A stretch of DNA of 28,648 nucleotides from NCBI GenBank assembly GCA_050050255.1, contig JASFUN010000001.1, positions 1-28,648 on the forward strand, given 5' to 3'. Below are positions 3,589 through 28,647 of the stretch, piece by piece (within the stretch, counting starts at the first letter, position 1; each line of letters starts with the position of its first letter). Made by a program: the position numbers and the translations under genes. This DNA is from Anaerolineales bacterium. Lineage in GTDB: Bacteria > Chloroflexota > Anaerolineae > Anaerolineales > E44-bin32. The notes under the pieces were generated by a model that saw only the letters and a list, made by a program, of their open reading frames with translations, did no database searches and was not told the DNA's origin.

Positions 3589-6393
3589 ATGCAAGCCGAG
3601 CAGACCAGTTCCAAGGATGTCAACCAGGCTCCCAACTCAGATTTGTATGAGTTGAATAGGCTGACTCGGGGGATTCTTTACGCTCCAGATATCGAAAGCC
3701 TTTTAAGGGAAGCCACACGCCATCTCATACGTTATGCGCAGGCCAGTGGTGGCTATGCTTGCGTGTGGGATGATGCCCTGCAAGCAGTAAGTTTGGTTTA
3801 TGAATCCAACCAACCACCCACGCTGTTCCCAATTTGGGAGGGCAGCAGTCCGGGGAGCGGGATCAGTCAACGAGCACTCGAAGGTGGAAGGGCGCTGACG
3901 CTGGATCTTGGAGCGTTGGACCCTGCCCTGATTATCGAAATATCCCCCGGGCTCCGATATGAAGGGGCGATTGCACTACCCTTGAGCGTTGGTGAGAGTT
4001 GGTTGGGGTGTATCGTTTTAGGAGTCCCCGAAGCGAACGAGTTCTCAATTACGGATAGGCTGTTCTACGATCAGGTCGTCAACCTGGTGTCGCTCGCTTT
4101 TTCGAAGCTGCAAGCGCTGGCGGGCGAACGCAAGCGCAGCAGTGAACTTGAGGGTCTCCACAAAGCAAGCCTGGGATTTACATCGAACCTTGATTTAGAG
4201 ACCGTTCTGGATGCGATTCTGGAAAGCACGCTCGACATGATCGAGGCAGACGACGCTCATATTTTTCTCTATGAAGACGGCGATCTGACCTTTGGGGCTG
4301 CCCGCAGGGTTGACGGACGCACGATCGGCCCCTACTCTACGCCGCGGGAGCACGGGCTGACCAGCGCGGTGGCTCGCAGCGGTGAAGCGATAGCAATACC
4401 CAACGTAGATGAGCACCCGCTCTTCACCGATTGGAAGTGGGGAGGTTCGATTGTAGGTTTGCCGTTAAAAGCAAGCGATCGCGTGGTTGGTGTGATGAAC
4501 ATCGCGCTGATGCAGCCGCATGAGTTCGATGAGGCTGAACTGCGGGGCTTACAACTCCTGGCGGATCAGGCCGCGATCATGGTCCAGAACGCGCGCTTAT
4601 TCGAACGCGTGGTGCGGGAACGACGCAACCTCGAACTTGTCTACGAGATCGCGCAGGACCTGGCCAACAGTCTCAACCAGGACGAGATCCTCGAACGGGC
4701 GTTGGCCTCCACGGTAAAACATCTGAAAGCCCATTCAGGTGAGATCTTCCTTTTCGATGAACATTCAGGCAAGCTTCATCTAAGAGCCTCCTCCCGACGG
4801 GATGGGTTGAAACTGTTGGAGATAGATGAACCCTATAAGCTGACCCTGGGCCATGGCTTGATGGGCTGGGTCGCACAGCACCGCCAATCCGCGTTTGTTC
4901 CAGACGTGAGCCTGGATGAGCGCTGGGTGATCTTCGAAGGCATAGATGAAGCCGTGTCCACTGCAGTGGCAACCCCGCTCATTTCAGGCAGCACCCTGAT
5001 CGGGGTCTTGGGGGTTTTCCAGACCGAAGTGGGTGAGTTTACCGAAGACCACCTGCATCTGTTGGATGCGATCGCCCGCCAGTTGAGCCTGGCAATCTCG
5101 AACGCAAGGCGCTACGAAGCGCTTGAGCGCAGAGTCGCGGAGCTCTCTGTCGTGCGTGAGGTCGTCCAGGTCGTCAATCAGCGCCTTGAAATGAGGAGCT
5201 TGCTGGAAGAGATCGTTCACCAGGTTGGTGAGGTCGTCGGCTATCCGATTGTAGAAGTATATCTGGTCGACGGATCGGAGCTCGTTCTCGGCGCGACCTA
5301 TGGTGGTCCCACTGATACGGCGACCCGCTACACACTGGCAGAAGGGGTGCTGGGACGCGTGGTTCGCACGGGCGAAGCGGCGTACTTGCCTGATGTCCAA
5401 GACGATCCTGATTACGTGGAAGGATGGGAGAATACGCTTTCTGAAATTGCAGTTCCATTACGTAAGGAAGACATGGTGATCGGGGTTCTCAACGTCGAAT
5501 CACCGGCAATTCGGGGGTTAAATGAGGAGGACGTTCGCCTGCTCAACGTCCTCGCAGACCAGATCTCAATCGCCATCGAAAATGCGGCGCTCTATGACCG
5601 GCTGCGCGAGCACGCTGATGCACTCGAATTAATGGTAGCTGATCGGACCGCCGAGTTGGCGGAGGCGCTCAACAAAGCTCAAGCGGCGGATAAGTTGAAG
5701 ACAGACTTTGTTTCCGACGTCTCACACGAGCTGCGCACTCCCTTGAGCAACATCCGTCTGTACCTCGATTTGCTTCGGCGAGGTCCTGAAGATCGTATTG
5801 AGAAATATTTGCAGACGCTTGACCGCGAGACGAACCGCCTGGTTGCATTGATAGAGGACCTGCTGGCCATCTCAAGCCTGGACGCGGGGACATCCATGCC
5901 GGATGCCAGGGCACTCGACTTGAACAAACTCGCACAAGCGCTCGCGGAAGACCGTAAACGTTTGTATTCCGACCGGGACCTTCAGCTTTCGCTGAATCTG
6001 GCTGCCGTCTTGCCCACCGTGCAGGCTGACGAAAAGATGATCTCACAGGTCGTGGCCAACTTGATGACCAACGCGCTAAATTACACGCCGCAGGGAGGGC
6101 ACGTGGTGCTGTACACCGAGCTAGTTGAAAATGAAGAAGGGACCTGGGCGACACTATCTGTGTGTGACGACGGCCTGGGGATCCCCGGCTCCGAGCTCGA
6201 CCGCATCTTTGACCGCTTCTTCCGCGGCAGTATCTCGCGCCGGACCGGCACTCCAGGTACCGGCCTGGGGCTGTCGATCTGCAAGGAAATCATCGAGAGG
6301 CATCAAGGTCACATCAGCGTGGAAAGCAAACCGGGCGAGGGGAGCACATTTACAATCTGGCTGCCCTACACCCGGTTGGTTGAGTGGGAATAG
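3589..6393 (+). CDS. Cytoplasmic multi-GAF (about 4 GAF) sensor histidine kinase, 934 aa
   Basis: Repeated GAF signatures (LPLKASDRVVGVMNI, TPLISGSTLIGVLGV, VPLRKEDMVIGVLNV, each followed by L..LA.Q..IAI.NA). H-box VSHELRTPLSNI, N-box VVANLMTNALNYT, G1 DDGLGI, G2 GTGLGLSI. No TM segment and no receiver domain. Confidence 0.95.
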   Translation: MQAEQTSSKDVNQAPNSDLYELNRLTRGILYAPDIESLLREATRHLIRYAQASGGYACVWDDALQAVSLVYESNQPPTLFPIWEGSSPGSGISQRALEGGRALTLDLGALDPALIIEISPGLRYEGAIALPLSVGESWLGCIVLGVPEANEFSITDRLFYDQVVNLVSLAFSKLQALAGERKRSSELEGLHKASLGFTSNLDLETVLDAILESTLDMIEADDAHIFLYEDGDLTFGAARRVDGRTIGPYSTPREHGLTSAVARSGEAIAIPNVDEHPLFTDWKWGGSIVGLPLKASDRVVGVMNIALMQPHEFDEAELRGLQLLADQAAIMVQNARLFERVVRERRNLELVYEIAQDLANSLNQDEILERALASTVKHLKAHSGEIFLFDEHSGKLHLRASSRRDGLKLLEIDEPYKLTLGHGLMGWVAQHRQSAFVPDVSLDERWVIFEGIDEAVSTAVATPLISGSTLIGVLGVFQTEVGEFTEDHLHLLDAIARQLSLAISNARRYEALERRVAELSVVREVVQVVNQRLEMRSLLEEIVHQVGEVVGYPIVEVYLVDGSELVLGATYGGPTDTATRYTLAEGVLGRVVRTGEAAYLPDVQDDPDYVEGWENTLSEIAVPLRKEDMVIGVLNVESPAIRGLNEEDVRLLNVLADQISIAIENAALYDRLREHADALELMVADRTAELAEALNKAQAADKLKTDFVSDVSHELRTPLSNIRLYLDLLRRGPEDRIEKYLQTLDRETNRLVALIEDLLAISSLDAGTSMPDARALDLNKLAQALAEDRKRLYSDRDLQLSLNLAAVLPTVQADEKMISQVVANLMTNALNYTPQGGHVVLYTELVENEEGTWATLSVCDDGLGIPGSELDRIFDRFFRGSISRRTGTPGTGLGLSICKEIIERHQGHISVESKPGEGSTFTIWLPYTRLVEWE

Positions 6394-19075: not shown

Positions 19076-21676
<2,601 letters not shown>

Positions 21677-21925: not shown

Positions 21926-22318
21926 ATGCAAAGGTATTACATCACACCACGTGGTTATCGGCCGATGCGCAGATATCAGCCGACAGGCTTCAACGGAGGC
22001 CGTCGCTTGCCGATCGATGTGCGCGCCGATGATGATGGATATGAGATCACGGCTGAGGTCCCTGGCCTGACAGCAGAGGACGTCAAGATTGAGATTCTTG
22101 ATGACGTCGTGACCCTGCGGGCTGAGCTCGAGACGGAAGAAGAAGGCGATCGTGTGCTCCTGCGCGAGCGTGGACCGATAGCGTTCGAACGCCGTTTGCG
22201 ATTACCAGACCCTCTGGACGTTGACGGGGCGGAAGCGAAAATCGAGAATGGCCTATTGCGGCTCCACCTGCCTAAGGCAGAGGAAGCACGGCCAAAGATG
22301 ATTGAAGTTAAAGCCTGA
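21926..22318 (+). CDS. Small heat-shock protein, Hsp20/alpha-crystallin family, 130 aa
   Basis: LPIDVRADDDGYEITAEVPGL...VKIEILDDVVTL...FERRLRLP...AEAKIENGLLRLHLPKAEEARPKMIEV. Start moved to ATG 21926 (GGAGGA). Confidence 0.95.
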   Translation: MQRYYITPRGYRPMRRYQPTGFNGGRRLPIDVRADDDGYEITAEVPGLTAEDVKIEILDDVVTLRAELETEEEGDRVLLRERGPIAFERRLRLPDPLDVDGAEAKIENGLLRLHLPKAEEARPKMIEVKA

Positions 22319-22343: not shown

Positions 22344-22374
22344 AATGGGCGGCGAAAGCCGCCCATTTTTTGTT
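22344..22374 (+). terminator. Intrinsic terminator after hsp20
   Basis: AATGGGCGGC-GAAA-GCCGCCCATT (10-bp stem, GNRA loop) followed by a T-run. Confidence 0.88.
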
Positions 22375-22395: not shown

Positions 22396-23082
22396 ATGTT
22401 TCCGATCAGGGACACTATACGCTCCAGATCCTTCCCGCTGGTCAATCTGGCGCTCATAGCGGTCAACGTCCTGGTGTTTCTCTTCCAAGCCTCGCTAAGC
22501 CAGCAAGGTTTCATGCGCATCATCCAGGTCTACGGGCTGGTTCCGGCGCACATCTCGCTCTCGCGCCCGGTGGAATTCTTCACGGTTTTCTCATCCATGT
22601 TTATGCATGGAAGCTGGTTTCATCTCATCAGCAATATGTGGACCCTGTATATCTTCGGCGATAATGTAGAAGACCGTATGGGATCGTTCCGCTACCTGGT
22701 CTTTTATCTGCTCGCCGGATCGATCGCGGCGGCGACACACGTGATTTTTGCGCCAAATTTGCAGCAGCCGACGGTGGGTGCCAGCGGAGCGGTCGCCGGG
22801 GTGTTGGGGGCTTATTTTCTGCTGTTCCCGAATTCCAGGGTGGTCACTTTTATCCCGATCTTCTTCCTCCCCTGGTTCGTACAGATCCCGGCCTTCATTT
22901 ACCTCGGCATCTGGTTTCTCTCACAGCTTGCAAACGGCGTCATGCTGAATCAGGCCATGAGTGGCATCGCCTGGTGGGCGCACATCGGCGGATTCATAAC
23001 CGGGCTGGTGTTGGTTCGGGCTTTTGCCCGACCAGAGCGTGTCGATGTCACATTTCACCAGGGTGATTACTGGCCCGGATAA
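22396..23082 (+). CDS. Rhomboid family intramembrane serine protease, 228 aa
   Basis: SMFMHGSWFHLISNMWTLYIFGDNVED, TVGASGAVAGVLGAY (catalytic Ser) and IAWWAHIGGF (catalytic His). About six TMs. Confidence 0.95.
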   Translation: MFPIRDTIRSRSFPLVNLALIAVNVLVFLFQASLSQQGFMRIIQVYGLVPAHISLSRPVEFFTVFSSMFMHGSWFHLISNMWTLYIFGDNVEDRMGSFRYLVFYLLAGSIAAATHVIFAPNLQQPTVGASGAVAGVLGAYFLLFPNSRVVTFIPIFFLPWFVQIPAFIYLGIWFLSQLANGVMLNQAMSGIAWWAHIGGFITGLVLVRAFARPERVDVTFHQGDYWPG

Positions 23083-23124
23083 AATCTATATACAATGGTA
23101 TCGATTTCAGGAAGGGGTTCTATC

Positions 23125-23856
23125 ATGAGCGATATCGGTCCCTCTATCAACCCAAACACAGCAGATCAACAGGAATTGATCCTGTTGCCCGGGGTCGGGG
23201 AAGCGCTAGCCCAACGGATCATCGAGCGTCGCCCTTTTGATTCGATCGAAGATTTGCAGCGTGTCCCCGGGTTGGGAGAAAGCACGCTCGACCGCATCAG
23301 GCCTATGATCGCCCTCAAAGAGCAGGATGTGCCCGAAGGCTCCCGGGAAGACTCCGTACCTGAAGTCGGTGCTGGGGGTGAGCCCGACCGGAGCGAATTC
23401 ATGACGAGATCTCAGGTCCTGGGTGTCAGCGCAGCCATGGCAGGAGTCGGGGTCATCGTCTCGATCTTACTGGTGCTGGCCATATTTATCGGTGTTAACC
23501 GGACCTTGAATTACTCGCGCCACGAAGCCGTGCGAACTATGGCCTCCGATGTGACGCAGATCGAGGTTGAGTTAGAGGGGTTGGCCGGAACATTGGACGG
23601 GGTGGAAGAACGCCTGCAGGCCCTCGAGGGTTTGAGCGGGCGTATGGCTGAACTGGAGGCTGAGACGCAGGACCTCGCTGGTGATGTCGCTGCAGCCTCG
23701 GCGCAGGTTCAGAGCATGCGCACACGTATCGGGGATATTTCAATCCGGATTGACGAGGTCGCCCGACAGTCGCAAAATCAGGCCACCTTTTTTGAGCGCT
23801 TACAGAGCTTGCTCACCGAGCTTTTCGGTGGCCCGGTTGAGGAGGGCACACAATGA
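23125..23856 (+). CDS. Helix-hairpin-helix (ComEA-type) domain + single TM + coiled coil, 243 aa
   Basis: INPNTADQQELILLPGVGEALAQRIIERRPFDSIEDLQRVPGLGESTLDRI, then TM GVGVIVSILLVLAIFIGV and a long heptad region. Start moved to ATG 23125. Confidence 0.85.
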   Translation: MSDIGPSINPNTADQQELILLPGVGEALAQRIIERRPFDSIEDLQRVPGLGESTLDRIRPMIALKEQDVPEGSREDSVPEVGAGGEPDRSEFMTRSQVLGVSAAMAGVGVIVSILLVLAIFIGVNRTLNYSRHEAVRTMASDVTQIEVELEGLAGTLDGVEERLQALEGLSGRMAELEAETQDLAGDVAAASAQVQSMRTRIGDISIRIDEVARQSQNQATFFERLQSLLTELFGGPVEEGTQ

Positions 23857-24686
23857 CGGACTCGCAGAATCAGGTTGAGGCCAAACAGGAAACGGCGGCC
23901 AGGGTTGAATCATCCCCTCAGGGAAAGCGAATGACCGCGCCGGAACCTTCGGTCGCCCGGAAAGTGGTGCGCTGGATATTCCGTATGCTGGTGGTAATTT
24001 TTCTGGGGATCGCCCTAGGCGCGGGTATTTACTATGGAGTGCGGCGTTTCTACCGGGATGCGATCGAACCTCTACAAACAATGGATCAGCGTACGCGCCA
24101 GGTGGAAACGAACGTTGCTGAGTTAAGCGAGACGATCCGGGAAGACAAGAAATCAGCGTTGGAAGAGATTGCCGATTTGAAGGGAAAACTTGCTGTTCAA
24201 GCGGAGGAAATAGCCACGCTATCATCCCAGCTATCCAGGCTTGAAACTCAGGCGGCGGAGCAAGCCGAGGCGCTTGATGAGATAACGGGACTGCGTGAAG
24301 ACATAGACCAGATCCAGGATGATTTCACGTCGTTGGACGGGCAGCTTGCGGATCTTGATGAGCTCGTCCAGGCGGAGGATCTTCCTGCCGCTCAGGTGCG
24401 GGAGAATCTGCAATTGATGCGGGTTATGATCTTATTGACGCGCGCCCGCCTGTGGGTAGAACAAGACAATTTTGGCCTGGCGGGCGAGGATGTGGACGCG
24501 GCGATTGGTATCATGGATGAAATGATGATTGACGGGACAGAAACTGAGGACCAGCCAGATCAAGCGTTGCTTGCGATCAGTGAGCAGCTTACACTGGCTT
24601 CTGACAATCTCGGGGACAATCCTACTCTCGCTGAAGAGGAACTGGAGATCGCCTGGAAATTGTTGTTCGAAGCCACCGCGCCTTAG
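23853..24686 (+). CDS. Uncharacterised single-pass coiled-coil membrane protein, 277 aa
   Basis: ATGA overlap with the upstream gene and RBS GAGGAGG. Basic RKVVRWIFR, then a TM, an acidic coiled coil and a C-terminal helical bundle. Confidence 0.8.
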   Translation: MTDSQNQVEAKQETAARVESSPQGKRMTAPEPSVARKVVRWIFRMLVVIFLGIALGAGIYYGVRRFYRDAIEPLQTMDQRTRQVETNVAELSETIREDKKSALEEIADLKGKLAVQAEEIATLSSQLSRLETQAAEQAEALDEITGLREDIDQIQDDFTSLDGQLADLDELVQAEDLPAAQVRENLQLMRVMILLTRARLWVEQDNFGLAGEDVDAAIGIMDEMMIDGTETEDQPDQALLAISEQLTLASDNLGDNPTLAEEELEIAWKLLFEATAP

Positions 24687-24723
24687 AGGCGTGAATCTTA
24701 TCTGCTGAGGAGGGAAAAGAGCC

Positions 24724-25380
24724 ATGCAAGAGGAAGAACAGGGAGCCGGTACGATCGGGAACGAAGATCAGGAGCCAGTCGAAGCCAGCCCTGAAACTGC
24801 AACCACAGAGCCTGAACTGGAACAAATGGACCAGATGGAAGAGGAGCAGGCCGAACCGCGCCGGCTGAGGCGATTCTTGACCTGGACGGTGGGACTCCTG
24901 CTTTTATTCGCGTTTGGGGTCGTCGCAGCCTGGTTCCTTCAAATAAAGCCCATGCGTGAACAGAATCAAAGCCTGCGCGCCGATCTCGCCGAAGCGCGCC
25001 AGAGCGTTGAATCGCTAACCAGCGAGGTCGAGGATCTGAGGCCGCTTAAAGCTAGAAATCAGGCGCTGGAGGAACAGGTGACTCAGTTGGAAAGTCATAT
25101 CTTCCTGCTGGATGTCCTCGTCGATATCTCCAAGGCGCAGCTGGCATTGGCCGAAGAGGATCTTATCGCCGCTGAGAACGCCCTGCGTGGCACGGATAAG
25201 CGCCTGAATCAGCTTGAAAATCGTCTGAGCGGAAACGATTCCGAGACGGTGCGTGGGTTGAGCGAAAGGCTCGCATTAGCGATTGAGGAAGTTGAAACGG
25301 ATGAGTTCGCGGCCCGCCGAGACCTGGAAATCCTGGCCAACAACCTGATCGCTCTTGAACAGCGGCTTTTCGGTGAGTGA
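24724..25380 (+). CDS. Uncharacterised single-pass coiled-coil membrane protein, paralogue of the upstream gene, 218 aa
   Basis: RBS GAGGAGG. Acidic N-terminus, RRLRRFLTW, then a TM, a coiled coil and a C-terminal bundle similar to that of 23853..24686. Confidence 0.8.
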   Translation: MQEEEQGAGTIGNEDQEPVEASPETATTEPELEQMDQMEEEQAEPRRLRRFLTWTVGLLLLFAFGVVAAWFLQIKPMREQNQSLRADLAEARQSVESLTSEVEDLRPLKARNQALEEQVTQLESHIFLLDVLVDISKAQLALAEEDLIAAENALRGTDKRLNQLENRLSGNDSETVRGLSERLALAIEEVETDEFAARRDLEILANNLIALEQRLFGE

Positions 25381-25404
25381 ATCCTGACACTGCATTTAAA
25401 TTTG

Positions 25405-25434
25405 AGCCCCCATATCCGTATGGGGGCTTTTTTT
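25405..25434 (+). terminator. Intrinsic terminator closing the coiled-coil gene unit
   Basis: AGCCCCCATA-TCCG-TATGGGGGCT (10-bp stem) followed by a T-run. Confidence 0.88.
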
Positions 25435-25479
25435 ATGAACTGAGGGACGCTAGAGCCGCCCTTCCGGTTGCGGAGCGCA

Positions 25480-26583
25480 TCAGTAGCGGGCGGTCGCGGC
25501 GATCTTTCCGGCCTTGGTCAGTTCTGGCGCCGGGGAAATGATTTCTACCTCGCCTCCATCCTGTAAGACCTTATGTACCGCCACCTCAACCACATCCTCG
25601 ATCTCTTCGAAGGGGTTGCCGCAGAACGGGCATTCTTCGCTCGGCTCAGCAGAAATAAAACCACAATTCGTGCATCTGAAGCCAGGTGCGCGGTAGCCGT
25701 CTTCGATCACCAACATCTGGACGTTTCCAGCGTACACAGCCTGGAGAGTATCGTCCAGGCCGCTGGCGCCACGCTCCTTTGCTGCGGCGGTCAGTACGCT
25801 TTTAATCAACTCCTGCTCCTCGCGTTCTTTGACATCTTCGGCGACGCGCATAACCGTTTCGAGCAGCTGTGCGTGTCCTGCCGTCATGTCGATCGTAAAG
25901 GTTCCCAGAACGATAGATTGCCAGCGCTTTGGGAGCAGTTCGATGAATCGTTGGGTGATCGGTTCCGAGCCGCCGATCAGTATCCTGCGTATTTTGTTCT
26001 GGTCAAAAAACTTTGCGGCGAAATCGGCCGACTCACGCAGGTTGCGTTCCACCAATTCCTCCGTGTAGCGCGTCTGCCCTGCGGTGCCGCCGCGACGGCC
26101 GGCAGCCTGTGACCCACCACCGCTTTTCGTATGCCGGACGTTCTCGCCCTTGATCTCTTCCTGTTCACTGATTTCACCCAGGTGAAAATGGAAGGCTCGC
26201 AGTCCTTGTTTGTCAACAATGGCGACGCCATAATGTCCAAAATGATCCAGTAGAGCAGCTAGCGGCTTTACGTAGGGCTTGGGTAGGAGCCGGGCGCGAT
26301 TGCGCACGGGAATCGGGAGGCTGATGGCGTGGAAGAAATCATCAGCCTGACAGGAGAACAAAACCAACCCCTGGCCGGAACCATCGTAATGATGCTCGAG
26401 ATAATTGTGAATCGCCTCGACATCTTCAGGGGACTGATCGCTGTAGGGTTTTAGCATCTGGCGGGAGCGGAGCCTGGCTTTTTCCGTTGTCGTTTGCGAG
26501 GGGTCAAAATTCAGATAGACACTTAATACTGGTTGCGATGACTGGAACTCGATTAGATCTCTGATGTCCAATTCGCGCAGCAT
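25480..26583 (-). CDS. Bacterial archaeo-eukaryotic release factor (eRF1/aRF1 superfamily, baeRF10-like) with zinc ribbon, 367 aa
   Basis: VLSVYL...GLVLFSC...PYVKPL (domain 1), YGVAIVDKQGLRAF and GGGSQ loop (domain 2), RILIGG, and GASGLDDTLQAVYAGNVQMLVI (domain 3) with CTNC...CPFC. RBS GGAGGAGG. Confidence 0.82.
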   Translation of the reverse strand: MLRELDIRDLIEFQSSQPVLSVYLNFDPSQTTTEKARLRSRQMLKPYSDQSPEDVEAIHNYLEHHYDGSGQGLVLFSCQADDFFHAISLPIPVRNRARLLPKPYVKPLAALLDHFGHYGVAIVDKQGLRAFHFHLGEISEQEEIKGENVRHTKSGGGSQAAGRRGGTAGQTRYTEELVERNLRESADFAAKFFDQNKIRRILIGGSEPITQRFIELLPKRWQSIVLGTFTIDMTAGHAQLLETVMRVAEDVKEREEQELIKSVLTAAAKERGASGLDDTLQAVYAGNVQMLVIEDGYRAPGFRCTNCGFISAEPSEECPFCGNPFEEIEDVVEVAVHKVLQDGGEVEIISPAPELTKAGKIAATARY

Positions 26584-26627
26584 AGATGTCCTCCTCCAAT
26601 AGTGAGGTCTAGGTGAATGCCATAGCC

Positions 26628-27839
26628 TCAGGGGCGAGCACCAATCGTCAGTGGAATATCCACCTCCTCATTATCGCGTATAACCGTCAGCGTGACGGTC
26701 TGGCCAGCGTTGGTGAATTTAAAAAGATAGGAGAGCAGATCTGCGAATGTGTAGACGGGTTCTCCATCGATGGCGATGATTAAGTCCCCACCACTGCGCA
26801 GGTTGGGTATGGCGGTCTCAGCAGCGCCGCCGCGCAAGCCAGCCTGATCGGCGGGCCCGCCGGGGATGACCTCTGTGATATAGGCGCCGTTTGTGAACGG
26901 TCCGTAGCCCAGGGCTTCGATCGTCTTCAGATTCCAGAGATCATCGTCGAGGCTTGAGATGCCGAGATATGGATAGCGGTATTCCCCGTTCCGGATGATC
27001 CCCGGTGCCACCCGGCGAACGATGTTGACCGGTATCGCAAATCCGACGCCTGAGCTTGCGGCATCTCCCTCCACCGTGAAGGTCTCGGTCTGGATGGCAC
27101 GGTTGACGCCAATCACCTCGCCGCTCATGTTCAAGAGCGGTCCTCCGGAGTTGCCGGGGTTGATTGCGGCATCAGTCTGGATCAGGTCACCAGCTGAGAA
27201 ACGCAGGCCTCCTGGCGTGGTGCGCTCGGATTCGAGCGTCCTGCCGATGGCGGAAATAACGCCGACTGTCATCGTGCCGCGCAGCCCAAATGGGTTGCCG
27301 ATGGCGACAACAAACTCGCCCACCCTAACGCCATCCGAATCACCCAGCGGCAGCGGGGACAGGTACTCTGAGTCGATGTCCACTTTCAAGATTGCAAGAT
27401 CTGAATCGGGATCGATTCCAATCAAATCAGCCCAGGCCTTCGCCCCCGAAGGGAAATCGACCTCGATCTCATCCGCGCCGCTGACAACGTGCTGGTTGGT
27501 GATGATGTAGCCTTCTTCATCAATCACGAAGCCGGATCCCTGACCGGCTGGAAGGGTGCCGGTCAGTCCCGAGGTGCTGTCATCAAAAATCCAGATCGTG
27601 ACCACGCCTGGGCTGACATTGGAATAGAGTGAGGTCAGATCCCCGCGGGTTATCTCAGTCTGATCGCTGAGGATGGGTGATGTCAGGTTTACAGCAGGTG
27701 AGGTTGAAGCCGGCAGCTCCATTGCGGGTGGCAGGGTTTCCTCAACCGGGGAAGGTGGCACAAGTTCCAGCCCGCAGGCAAGGTTCGAAAGCAGCAGGAC
27801 CAGCGCTACCGCCACGAGGTAATGTTTTCTTTTTTTCAT
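26628..27839 (-). CDS. htrA: HtrA/DegP-family serine protease with one PDZ domain, lipoprotein, 403 aa
   Basis: GSGFVID...ITNQHVV (His), DSDLAILKV (Asp), QTDAAINPGNSGGPL (Ser), PDZ GAYITEVIPGGPADQAGL, and signal MKKRKHYLVAVALVLLLSNLA-C. Confidence 0.93.
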   Translation of the reverse strand: MKKRKHYLVAVALVLLLSNLACGLELVPPSPVEETLPPAMELPASTSPAVNLTSPILSDQTEITRGDLTSLYSNVSPGVVTIWIFDDSTSGLTGTLPAGQGSGFVIDEEGYIITNQHVVSGADEIEVDFPSGAKAWADLIGIDPDSDLAILKVDIDSEYLSPLPLGDSDGVRVGEFVVAIGNPFGLRGTMTVGVISAIGRTLESERTTPGGLRFSAGDLIQTDAAINPGNSGGPLLNMSGEVIGVNRAIQTETFTVEGDAASSGVGFAIPVNIVRRVAPGIIRNGEYRYPYLGISSLDDDLWNLKTIEALGYGPFTNGAYITEVIPGGPADQAGLRGGAAETAIPNLRSGGDLIIAIDGEPVYTFADLLSYLFKFTNAGQTVTLTVIRDNEEVDIPLTIGARP

Positions 27840-27885
27840 GCTTCCAACCAGTCCTGAAAAACCAACCCGCTGTCACACTGGATTA

Positions 27886-28647
27886 CTACCCATTAAGCTT
27901 GGCAAGCTCATCAAACAATTCCCGCTCGCGGCCACTAAGGTTTTCTGGAATCTTCACATTTAACTCAGCGAAAAGGTCACCCTTTACAGATGGTTCTCGC
28001 AAGCGGGGCATACCGCGGCCTTTTAGTCGGAAGGTCTTTCCCGGCTGACTGCCCGCCGGGATGGTGAGAATGACATCCCCGCTCAGTGTTGGTATTTTTA
28101 CCTCGCCTCCCAAAACAGCGGTGTAAAGATCGACCGTTACCTGGGTTCGAAGGTCATCGTGTTTGCGCTCGAAGCGCGGATCATCCTGCACGTTCACGCG
28201 CAGGTACAGATCTCCAGAACCGCCTGAACCGGATTCGCCTTTGCCGCTCACACGCACGCGTGTCCCGGTCCGGGCTCCAGGTGGGATCGTCACTTCTAAG
28301 CGGCTGCCATCCCGCTGGATGGTCCTTTGAGTTCCGGTATATGCCTCGGTGAGGCTGATAGCGATGGGCTGCTCAATGTCACGGCCGCGTCTGGCTGTTC
28401 GTGGTCGGCGACCGAAACTGCCAGCGCCTTGTGCTGCACCGCCGCCAAAGATGGAATTAAAGAAATCCGAGAAACCACCACCGCCGAAGATGTCCCCGAT
28501 GTCACCAACTTCAACCCTGACATTCCCCCCGCCCCCGGGGAAACCGCTGGCCCATTGGGACCAATCGAAGCTGCCCGGATCCCGTCCAGTGCGCTCCCAG
28601 GCTCGATAAGATGAGCCCAGTTGATCGTACTTGGCACGTTTCTTTTT
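27886..28647 (-). CDS. CbpA-like class B DnaJ co-chaperone (no zinc finger); J-domain largely beyond the window edge
   Basis: My translation runs open from 28647: KKKRAKYDQLG...GGGGFSDFFNSIFGG...RGRDIEQPIAISLTEAYTG...LEVTIPPG...GDLYLRV...RLKGRGMP...GDLFAELNVKIP. The ORF track lists only the last 135 aa. Confidence 0.92.
   Translation of the reverse strand, partial: KKKRAKYDQLGSSYRAWERTGRDPGSFDWSQWASGFPGGGGNVRVEVGDIGDIFGGGGFSDFFNSIFGGGAAQGAGSFGRRPRTARRGRDIEQPIAISLTEAYTGTQRTIQRDGSRLEVTIPPGARTGTRVRVSGKGESGSGGSGDLYLRVNVQDDPRFERKHDDLRTQVTVDLYTAVLGGEVKIPTLSGDVILTIPAGSQPGKTFRLKGRGMPRLREPSVKGDLFAELNVKIPENLSGRERELFDELAKLNG

Follow-up and report, generated by a model that had tools for sequence, protein, structure and literature searches.

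The stretch of DNA analysed here (the window) covers 28,648 nucleotides (nt) of contig JASFUN010000001.1 from an uncultured wetland bacterium of the class Anaerolineae. It contains three adjacent and co-oriented open reading frames (ORFs), here called g1, g2 and g3, of which the first encodes a protein with a helix-hairpin-helix (HhH) domain and the other two encode related coiled-coil proteins (Table 1). The stop codon of g1 overlaps with the start codon of g2 in the sequence ATGA, g2 and g3 are spaced by 37 nt, and a hairpin followed by a T-run closes the unit, so that the arrangement of three consecutive genes ahead of a strong terminator, as described in a previous sequence-only reading of this DNA, was recovered from the ORF coordinates and the hairpin. 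The shared architecture and the tight coupling of the genes, which that reading had also pointed out, are supported, but the unit does not begin at g1, as had been assumed, since g1 starts 42 nt after the end of a rhomboid gene, which is itself preceded by hsp20. Dozens of homologues in each of the three families retain conserved motifs, and g1, g2 and g3 are therefore real genes rather than chance reading frames. The start of g1 at position 23125 is preferred over the start at position 23095, because all homologues begin with MS[DE] at the former position and the ATG is preceded there by a good Shine-Dalgarno (SD) sequence.

Each of the three proteins has one strongly hydrophobic helix, predicted to be a transmembrane (TM) helix. 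Conserved hydrophobic columns that follow the TM helix in the alignments of the three families recur with a periodicity of 3.45-3.5 residues over approximately 100 residues in g1, 110 residues in g2 and 50 residues in g3, which is the pattern of a canonical heptad coiled coil. The parts of the proteins located after the TM helix are acidic in all three cases, with isoelectric points (pI) of 4.0-4.6. The earlier description of each protein as one TM helix followed by a long acidic coiled coil fits these data with regard to the helix, the heptads and the charge, but not with regard to the last approximately 100 residues of g2 and g3, which are predicted to form a four-helix bundle.

Table 1. Features of the g1-g2-g3 locus and its surroundings. 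Positions refer to the window, except in the last row, where they refer to the loci named; aa, amino acids; pLDDT, predicted local distance difference test.
Feature	Position	Strand	Description
g1	23125..23856	+	243 aa; HhH, disordered acidic linker, TM, kink motif GINRTLN, single 100-residue heptad helix
g1 HhH2 domain, ComEA/PsbU type	23143..23310	+	residues 7-62; HHH_3 PF12836 E 4e-16; pLDDT about 90
g1 TM helix	23407..23499	+	residues ~95-125; N-terminal end rich in small residues (GISAAAAGVG)
g1 coiled coil	23524..23826	+	residues 134-234; conserved motif RLxALEGLSGRMxxxE
g2	23853..24686	+	277 aa; basic N-tail, TM (GxxxGxG), ~110-residue coiled coil, C-terminal four-helix-bundle domain
g2 C-terminal domain	24366..24674	+	residues 172-274; LTRARL...NfGLA...ELEIAWKLL; unnamed family; no Pfam match
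g3	24724..25380	+	218 aa; acidic disordered N-tail, RRLRR, TM, ~50-residue coiled coil, four-helix bundle
g3 four-helix-bundle domain	25069..25377	+	residues 116-218; invariant FAARRDLEILANN; pLDDT above 90; matched by profile A4 (E 5.5e-11)
Intrinsic terminator closing the unit	25404..25436	+	11-bp stem, 6 G-C pairs, T-run
hsp20	21926..22318	+	130 aa; PF00011 E 8e-21; good SD before 21926 ATG; first gene of the probable transcription unit
Hairpin and T-run after hsp20	22344..22373	+	10-bp stem, 7 G-C pairs; ends 22 nt before the rhomboid start; probably an attenuator
Rhomboid intramembrane serine protease	22396..23082	+	228 aa; PF01694 E 6e-36; HxxxxHxxxN, GASGA and AHIGG motifs
ClpB-like disaggregase	19076..21676	-	866-aa ORF; divergent conserved neighbour; full-length phmmer matches at the same position in relatives
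baeRF_family10 release-factor-like protein	25480..26583	-	convergent conserved neighbour; PF18854 E 1.7e-36; syntenic in relatives
HtrA-type protease (trypsin and PDZ)	26628..27839	-	conserved neighbour; syntenic in relatives
543-560-aa neighbour of the fused HhH-g2 gene	L004 4357-5991, L048 5039-6670, L047 4983-6641; L046 5150-6832		upstream of the fused gene in L004, L048 and L047; downstream in L046

The C-terminal parts of g2 and g3 could be aligned to each other with hhalign (96.9%, E 1.6e-10), and profile A4, for which only g2 domains were used, matched g2 at an E-value of 1.4e-30 and g3 at an E-value of 5.5e-11. By these profile comparisons, g3 is a paralogue of g2, and the two have a C-terminal domain of about 100 aa in common. 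Members of this domain family carry the signature LTRARL / N-x-G-L-A / ELEIAW at the end of a protein that begins with a TM helix and a coiled coil, and the TM helix of g2 has an invariant face of the GxxxGxG type. A Pfam search of all 31 members of the g2 family gave no domain match beyond coiled-coil noise. Paralogy of the g1 coiled coil to g2 or g3 was not detectable by profile comparison.

The AlphaFold2 (AF2) model of g3 has a mean pLDDT of 79.5, with values above 90 from residue 81. It contains a disordered acidic tail (residues 1-45) and one long helix (residues 47-143) that spans both the TM segment and the coiled coil. The last part of this helix and four short helices pack together to give an up-down four-helix bundle (residues ~116-218). 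Comparisons of the bundle to known folds with VIA-align and Foldseek identified cytochrome b562, PsbQ, FliS, LytS-N, PcaY and NarQ, which are generic bundles only, with VIA Z-scores of 12-14 that the tool itself considers common for helical bundles. Likewise, searches with the g3 model against the PDB and AFDB clusters in Foldseek, VIA wide and the ESM Atlas returned only generic four-helix bundles or uncharacterised proteins. The putatively cytoplasmic tail of g3 (24724-24870, residues 1-49) is disordered, starts with a conserved MQEEE and contains 16 aspartate and glutamate residues versus four lysine and arginine residues; that it might act as a DNA mimic or as a partner of the HhH domain is pure speculation. 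One homologue to g2 (G141:C319:8581-9348, E 5e-42) contains a single in-frame TGA, which may be a sequencing error, a sign of a pseudogene or a case of recoding.

In g1, the AF2 model, which was built on an alignment of 34 sequences, shows a confidently predicted HhH2 domain, a disordered linker (residues 67-94) that is rich in proline, glutamate and alanine, the TM helix (residues 95-125), a break, and an uninterrupted helix (residues 134-234). The motif GINRTLN, which is located at the break between the TM helix and the long helix, is invariant in the family, and F222 is conserved along with the motif in the coiled coil. The closest structure to the g1 family profile is 2DUY, a ComEA-related protein from T. 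thermophilus (E 2.8e-21). Conservation within the HhH domain extends to both GxG hairpins and to the four arginines R31, R36, R46 and R57, as in DNA binders of the ComEA type, and these features together with the likeness to 2DUY make DNA binding by the g1 HhH domain plausible. We would nevertheless use the earlier label of a "DNA-binding subunit" for g1 only provisionally, since the relatives of the domain include PsbU, which does not bind DNA.

Close homologues to the three proteins fall into 40-60 clusters per protein, all of which are from Anaerolineales or other Chloroflexota metagenome bins. The g3 gene is present in 32 of the 36 genomes in the family of the source organism and has a patchy distribution in the order, and it is essentially missing from a sample of 200 genomes of the class. 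The distribution of g2 is broader, with 34 of 201 class genomes. Twenty g2 loci were fetched at the class level: in at least 13 of these, g1 is located directly upstream of g2, in three the two are fused, and in two more only partial matches to the g1 profile were seen. Another paralogue of the g2/g3 type, a third one, precedes g1 in three of the 20 loci. Because g1 adjoins or is fused to g2 throughout the class while g3 is narrowly distributed, gene order indicates that the g1-g2 pair, or the fused g1g2, is the class-wide conserved core and that g3 is an accessory and lineage-restricted paralogue. Thus, the trio that had been proposed as the unit is syntenic in relatives, but only the pair is conserved across the class, with g3 added as a paralogue of g2 in some genomes.

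Searches of a representative library with profile A4 identified 996 clusters at 50% identity with an E-value of at most 1e-3, of which 614 were at or below 1e-10. In a 300-genome sample of the phylum, matches were confined to genomes of the class Anaerolineae, apart from a single genus of another class with weak and partial matches. As far as these samples extend, the family is confined to the Anaerolineae, and it has no name. The genus with the partial matches, g211, belongs to another class of the Chloroflexota and provided the sole non-Anaerolineae matches in the phylum sample; there, ORFs of 181 aa match positions 3-83 of A4 with E-values of about 1e-9 to 3e-7 (G438:C1:3096732-3096956 and eight other genomes).

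The composition of the Hsp20 locus varies among the genomes. The gene order in G201 and G222 is Hsp20-g2-g3-HtrA, with neither rhomboid nor g1 at the locus, only g3 is left at the Hsp20 locus in G213, where rhomboid and g1 are both missing, and G252 has rhomboid-g3 without g1. A full-length g1 was not found elsewhere in G201, G213 or G252, nor in the complete genome G249. A second g1-g2 pair is located beside an MscS-like gene in G222; we rejected a joint relocation of rhomboid and g1 in this genome, as no rhomboid gene accompanies the second copy.

The membrane topology was assessed from the distribution of lysine and arginine residues (K+R), counted over 15 residues on either side of the TM helix. 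Basic residues precede the TM helix in g2 (ARKVVRWIFR) and in g3 (PRRLRRF), and the K+R counts before and after the helix in the family alignments are 95/48 for g2 and 137/57 for g3. The corresponding numbers are 334/114 for 118 further g2-type proteins from a library of 1.84 billion proteins, and the C-terminal tails of these proteins consist to 50% of proline, threonine and serine, which is typical of exported linkers. The positive-inside rule clearly predicts an N-in/C-out orientation for g2 and g3, in agreement with that proposed from the basic residues in the sequence-only reading. The orientation of g1 is ambiguous by charge alone. Natural fusions (P0106 and the f2-family proteins in L046-L048) consist of the same HhH domain as in g1, followed by a TM helix of the g2 type (GAGIYYG), a coiled coil, a bundle and a PT-rich tail. 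Since the HhH domain in these fused forms is N-terminal to a g2-type TM helix with a K+R distribution of 19/7, it is predicted to be located in the cytoplasm. By extension from these fusions, the HhH domain of the split g1 is quite probably cytoplasmic too, and its placement on this side of the membrane, as suggested earlier, is thus favoured. The C-terminal tails of distant g1 homologues are rich in proline and threonine, like the outward C-termini of g2.

The three genes are located in a block of genes for stress proteins and proteases, a setting that the sequence-only reading did not take into account in its interpretation. The spacing between hsp20 and the rhomboid gene, the product of which looks active from its catalytic motifs, is from a few to ~70 nt in relatives. 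Given this short spacing and the lack of room for a separate promoter, we suggest that hsp20-rhomboid-g1-g2-g3 is a single unit that is transcribed by partial read-through, and that transcription very probably runs on from hsp20 and the rhomboid gene into g1-g2-g3. The same block, with a gene on the opposite strand whose product we take to be ClpB from our own reading of the sequence, followed by Hsp20-rhomboid-g1-g2-g3 and by baeRF_family10 and HtrA on the opposite strand, recurs within the family, in several further families of the order and in the complete Anaerolineaceae genome CP070708 (L001), in which g1 is 39% identical. In L001, a gene for a serine protease of the ClpP/NfeD type (4938-5792; PF01972, PF25145) is inserted between rhomboid and g1. 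On the minus strand at positions 25480-28647 of the window, co-oriented genes for a DnaJ_C-domain protein, HtrA and baeRF_family10, the last with a rubredoxin-like zinc ribbon, converge on the trio.

Contigs from wetland metatranscriptomes provide modest evidence of transcription. An exact match to hsp20 was found in four runs, and positions 23145-23405 (g1) and 23909-24090 (g2) were matched in one run each, while positions 24372-27107 were silent in all four runs. The density of contigs was much higher on hsp20 than downstream of it, as expected if the hairpin after hsp20 is a partial terminator.

At the class level, the genes next to g1-g2 encode MscS-like channels, fusions of amino-acid permeases with Usp, transporters of the major facilitator superfamily and glycosidases. 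Two or more lineages have the MscS-like genes (PF05552) immediately ahead of g1-g2 (L003 4411-5916, L063 3380-4891, L042 4610-6006), and in L042 a gene for a cyclic-di-AMP receptor (PF06153) lies between the MscS-like gene and the module. These neighbours hint at a link to osmotic conditions or membrane tension. In the f2 family, a conserved protein of 543-560 aa is encoded next to the fused HhH-g2 gene (Table 1); it gave no Pfam match in the copies scanned or on record, and may be another partner of the fused protein.

The explanation that we favour, tentatively and with a confidence that stops short of probable, is that the trio constitutes a module of bitopic membrane proteins specific to the Anaerolineae, which assembles into a hetero-oligomeric trans-envelope stalk with an HhH end in the cytoplasm and which is expressed here with heat-shock genes. 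All three proteins would then be oriented N-in/C-out, with TM helices that associate via the GxxxGxG face of g2 and the small-residue-rich TM helix of g1, and with extracytoplasmic coiled coils that run in parallel to form a stalk of about 10-15 nm in length. The bundles of g2 and g3 would be located at the tip of this stalk, in the zone of the wall or sheath, while the HhH domain would be tethered in the cytoplasm by a flexible linker of 30-110 residues and bind DNA non-specifically, or another ligand. Because of the probable read-through from hsp20 and rhomboid and the position among genes for ClpB, HtrA, DnaJ-like and baeRF proteins, we propose that the module is made under proteotoxic or envelope stress. 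It would serve as a mechanical or organisational link between the envelope and the cytoplasm, rather than in DNA uptake or septation.

Several observations weigh against this explanation. The HhH domain of the g1 family is not basic but has a mean net charge of about -1, and the K+R counts of the g1 family, 55 before and 86 after the TM helix, point weakly to the opposite topology. The complete genome G249 has g3 alone and G201 has g2 and g3 without g1, which means that a fixed 1:1:1 trio is not required. Moreover, the heat-shock context is absent from the g1-g2 loci at the class level and may therefore be incidental, the hairpin that follows hsp20 might terminate transcription fully, and the contigs from the RNA libraries could derive from carry-over of DNA.

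An alternative is that the proteins act as a scaffold or sensor of the envelope. The HhH domain would then mediate protein interactions and not bind DNA, as in PsbU, and the four-helix bundles would sense or bind a component of the envelope. An analogy is provided by RodZ, in which the helix-turn-helix (HTH) domain binds MreB. The near-neutral to acidic HhH domain fits with such a role, as do its HHH_3 relatives PsbU and GspK, neither of which binds DNA, the resemblance of the g3 bundle to periplasmic sensor bundles (LytS-N, PcaY, NarQ, CHASE3), albeit at generic scores, and the MscS-like genes upstream of g1-g2. We consider a scaffold or sensor rather unlikely, given that the GxG hairpins and the four arginines are conserved as in DNA binders of the ComEA type, that the closest structure to the HhH domain is a ComEA-related protein, that the fold matches are non-specific, and that no output domain or partner was identified. 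Another alternative, which we judge to be less likely than a scaffold, is regulated intramembrane proteolysis, in which the rhomboid would cleave a single-pass protein, most plausibly g1, and thereby set free either the HhH domain or the coiled coil under stress. The gene for an active-looking rhomboid immediately precedes g1 and shares synteny with it in many relatives, and both genes are absent at the Hsp20 locus of G201, G222 and G213, although this joint loss is seen in one genus and may represent a single deletion. Rhomboids usually cleave single-pass substrates that are N-out, an orientation that the charge bias of g1 allows, and the N-terminal half of the g1 TM helix is rich in small residues (GISAAAAGVG). 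However, the N-in/C-out orientation of g2 and g3 is non-canonical for rhomboid substrates, and the HhH-g2 fusions favour an N-in g1. The gene content also argues against proteolysis, with class-level g1-g2 pairs that have no rhomboid within about 7 kb, the ClpP/NfeD-type protease gene that separates rhomboid from g1 in L001, and a rhomboid-g3 pair without g1 in G252.

If the charge bias of g1 is taken at face value, the topology would be inverted, with the N-terminus of g1 and its HhH domain outside the cell, where it could bind extracellular DNA for uptake, in a matrix or as an anchor in biofilms, and with the coiled coil in the cytoplasm. The HhH domains of ComEA, PsbU and GspK are all extracytoplasmic, and the proline-, glutamate- and alanine-rich linker of g1 is similar to linkers that span the cell wall. 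Yet g1 has no signal peptide, and the cell would need to export an N-tail of ~95 residues that contains at least six arginines. The same HhH domain is clearly cytoplasmic where it is fused to a g2-type TM helix, the tails of the distant g1 homologues resemble outward g2 C-termini, the score to the ComEA model TIGR01259 is far below its cut-off and no competence gene is located in the neighbourhood, all of which makes an inverted g1 improbable. A divergent sub-complex of the divisome of the FtsL/FtsB(/FtsQ) type has the least to recommend it, and we regard it as very improbable. The bitopic N-in arrangement, the extracytoplasmic helix that resembles a leucine zipper, the presence of two paralogous subunits, the weak DivIC match of g3 and some annotations by the Joint Genome Institute that read "FtsB" are in line with it, but the DivIC scores are below the cut-off, separate DivIC-type ORFs are present in relatives and the gene context is that of heat shock rather than dcw. 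Nor would an essential part of the divisome be expected to be patchy even within its order, as this module is.

The Anaerolineae are filamentous bacteria that are abundant in sediments, wetlands and digesters, and to our knowledge the biology of their envelope is almost unknown. What is newly defined here is an unannotated family that comprises about 1,000 clusters (50% identity) and has neither a Pfam model nor a solved structure, and a full-text search of the literature found no paper on the architecture or on the gene block. The domain grammar of the family consists of an HhH protein and a partner with a TM helix, coiled coil and bundle, either split or fused, to which paralogues are optionally added. 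Should the HhH domain prove to bind intracellular DNA, this would be one of the rare bacterial modules that are dedicated to connecting DNA with the envelope; if it does not, the family would still represent a conserved envelope stalk that was recruited in one lineage into a block of heat-shock and protease genes. At present, the practical value lies in annotation, in the form of a domain definition and a testable topology. A bolder version of the favoured stalk, which we find doubtful, is a trans-envelope tether in which the cytoplasmic HhH domain holds the nucleoid and the coiled-coil stalk with its bundle heads holds the wall or sheath. Such a tether would couple the position or compaction of the chromosome to the mechanics of the envelope in filamentous Anaerolineae, and would be released by the neighbouring membrane proteases under stress. 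Its layout would be analogous to that of the eukaryotic LINC or HeH/LEM tethers of the inner nuclear membrane.

We compared the three proteins to known systems. Scans of g1, g2 and g3 against Pfam, NCBIfam and PADLOC identified HHH_3 and coiled-coil noise only, and PDB profile searches returned only HhH relatives and coiled coils. The statement in the sequence-only reading that no named system is recognisable therefore holds for these searches. An assignment to known anti-phage defence systems was rejected, since the PADLOC hits were only coiled-coil noise against SMC-like models, with E-values of 1e-4 or higher.

The protein g1 resembles ComEA in the type of its HhH2 domain (2DUY, and ComE operon protein 1 in 8DSS and 8DFK), in the conserved GxG hairpins and in having one TM anchor. 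However, the HhH domain in g1 precedes the sole TM helix, has no signal anchor in front of it and is probably cytoplasmic, whereas ComEA has an N-terminal anchor and a C-terminal, extracytoplasmic HhH domain. In addition, the oligomerisation domain of ComEA is replaced in g1 by a coiled coil of 100 residues. The scores of g1 to the comEA models are below the cut-offs for both TIGR01259 (39 bits, cut-off 152) and TIGR00426 (38.4 bits, cut-off 53.1), and neither comEC nor any other competence gene was found in the neighbourhood within the window. On the grounds of the reversed domain order, the low scores and the gene context, we rejected the identification of g1 as ComEA proper.

Similarly, g2 and g3 are reminiscent of FtsB-FtsL (DivIC) in that they are paralogous bitopic proteins, predicted to be N-in, with extracytoplasmic coiled coils that may pair. 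They differ in being two to three times longer, in having a four-helix-bundle head and in their patchy distribution. The scores to the DivIC model PF04977 are 18.8 bits for g3 (E 0.0015) and 10.8 bits for g2, as compared to a gathering score of 28.9, and separate DivIC-type ORFs of 127-188 aa are located elsewhere in five relatives, two of them with scores over the cut-off. The proteins were accordingly not accepted as FtsB or FtsL, and the FtsL/FtsB-like role considered earlier is unlikely. HemX (PF04375) and the bacterial Mic60/mitofilin proteins (PF09731) also have a TM helix, a coiled coil and a C-terminal helical region, and were weak neighbours of the family in the feature space of a protein language model (0.76). 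None of the 31 family members had a Pfam match to PF04375 or PF09731 at an E-value of 1 or below, and no Mic60 structure was among the fold matches of the g3 model. An hhalign comparison to E. coli HemX gave probabilities of 0.2% for A4 and 3.6% for A2, in a test limited by the single sequence on the HemX side. HemX and Mic60 were rejected on the basis of these results and because there is no hemCD context.

A more general likeness is to RodZ and to proteins of the ToxR-ToxS type, which act together with a bitopic partner and in which a linker and a TM helix connect a cytoplasmic domain of a nucleic-acid-binding type to a region outside the cytoplasm. This layout is similar to that of the trio and serves as a lead only: we found no relation in sequence or fold, the cytoplasmic domain of g1 is HhH rather than HTH or winged HTH, and the ectodomains of the trio are a coiled coil and a helix bundle. 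With regard to the neighbouring rhomboid gene, rather than the trio itself, a rhomboid among proteostasis genes recalls YqgP with FtsH in B. subtilis and GlpG/Rhom7 in Shigella. The best matches of the g1 and g2 coiled coils to solved structures were to trimeric stalks, namely the S-layer anchor SlaB (8QOX_B), reovirus sigma-1, P22 gp26 and UspA1, with E-values of 2e-5 to 1e-9. SlaB is an archaeal protein with a C-terminal anchor, and the likeness to all of these stalks is one of heptad composition only, for which we claim no homology. By analogy, these matches suggest that the coiled coils of the trio form a membrane-anchored, multi-stranded and possibly three-stranded stalk.

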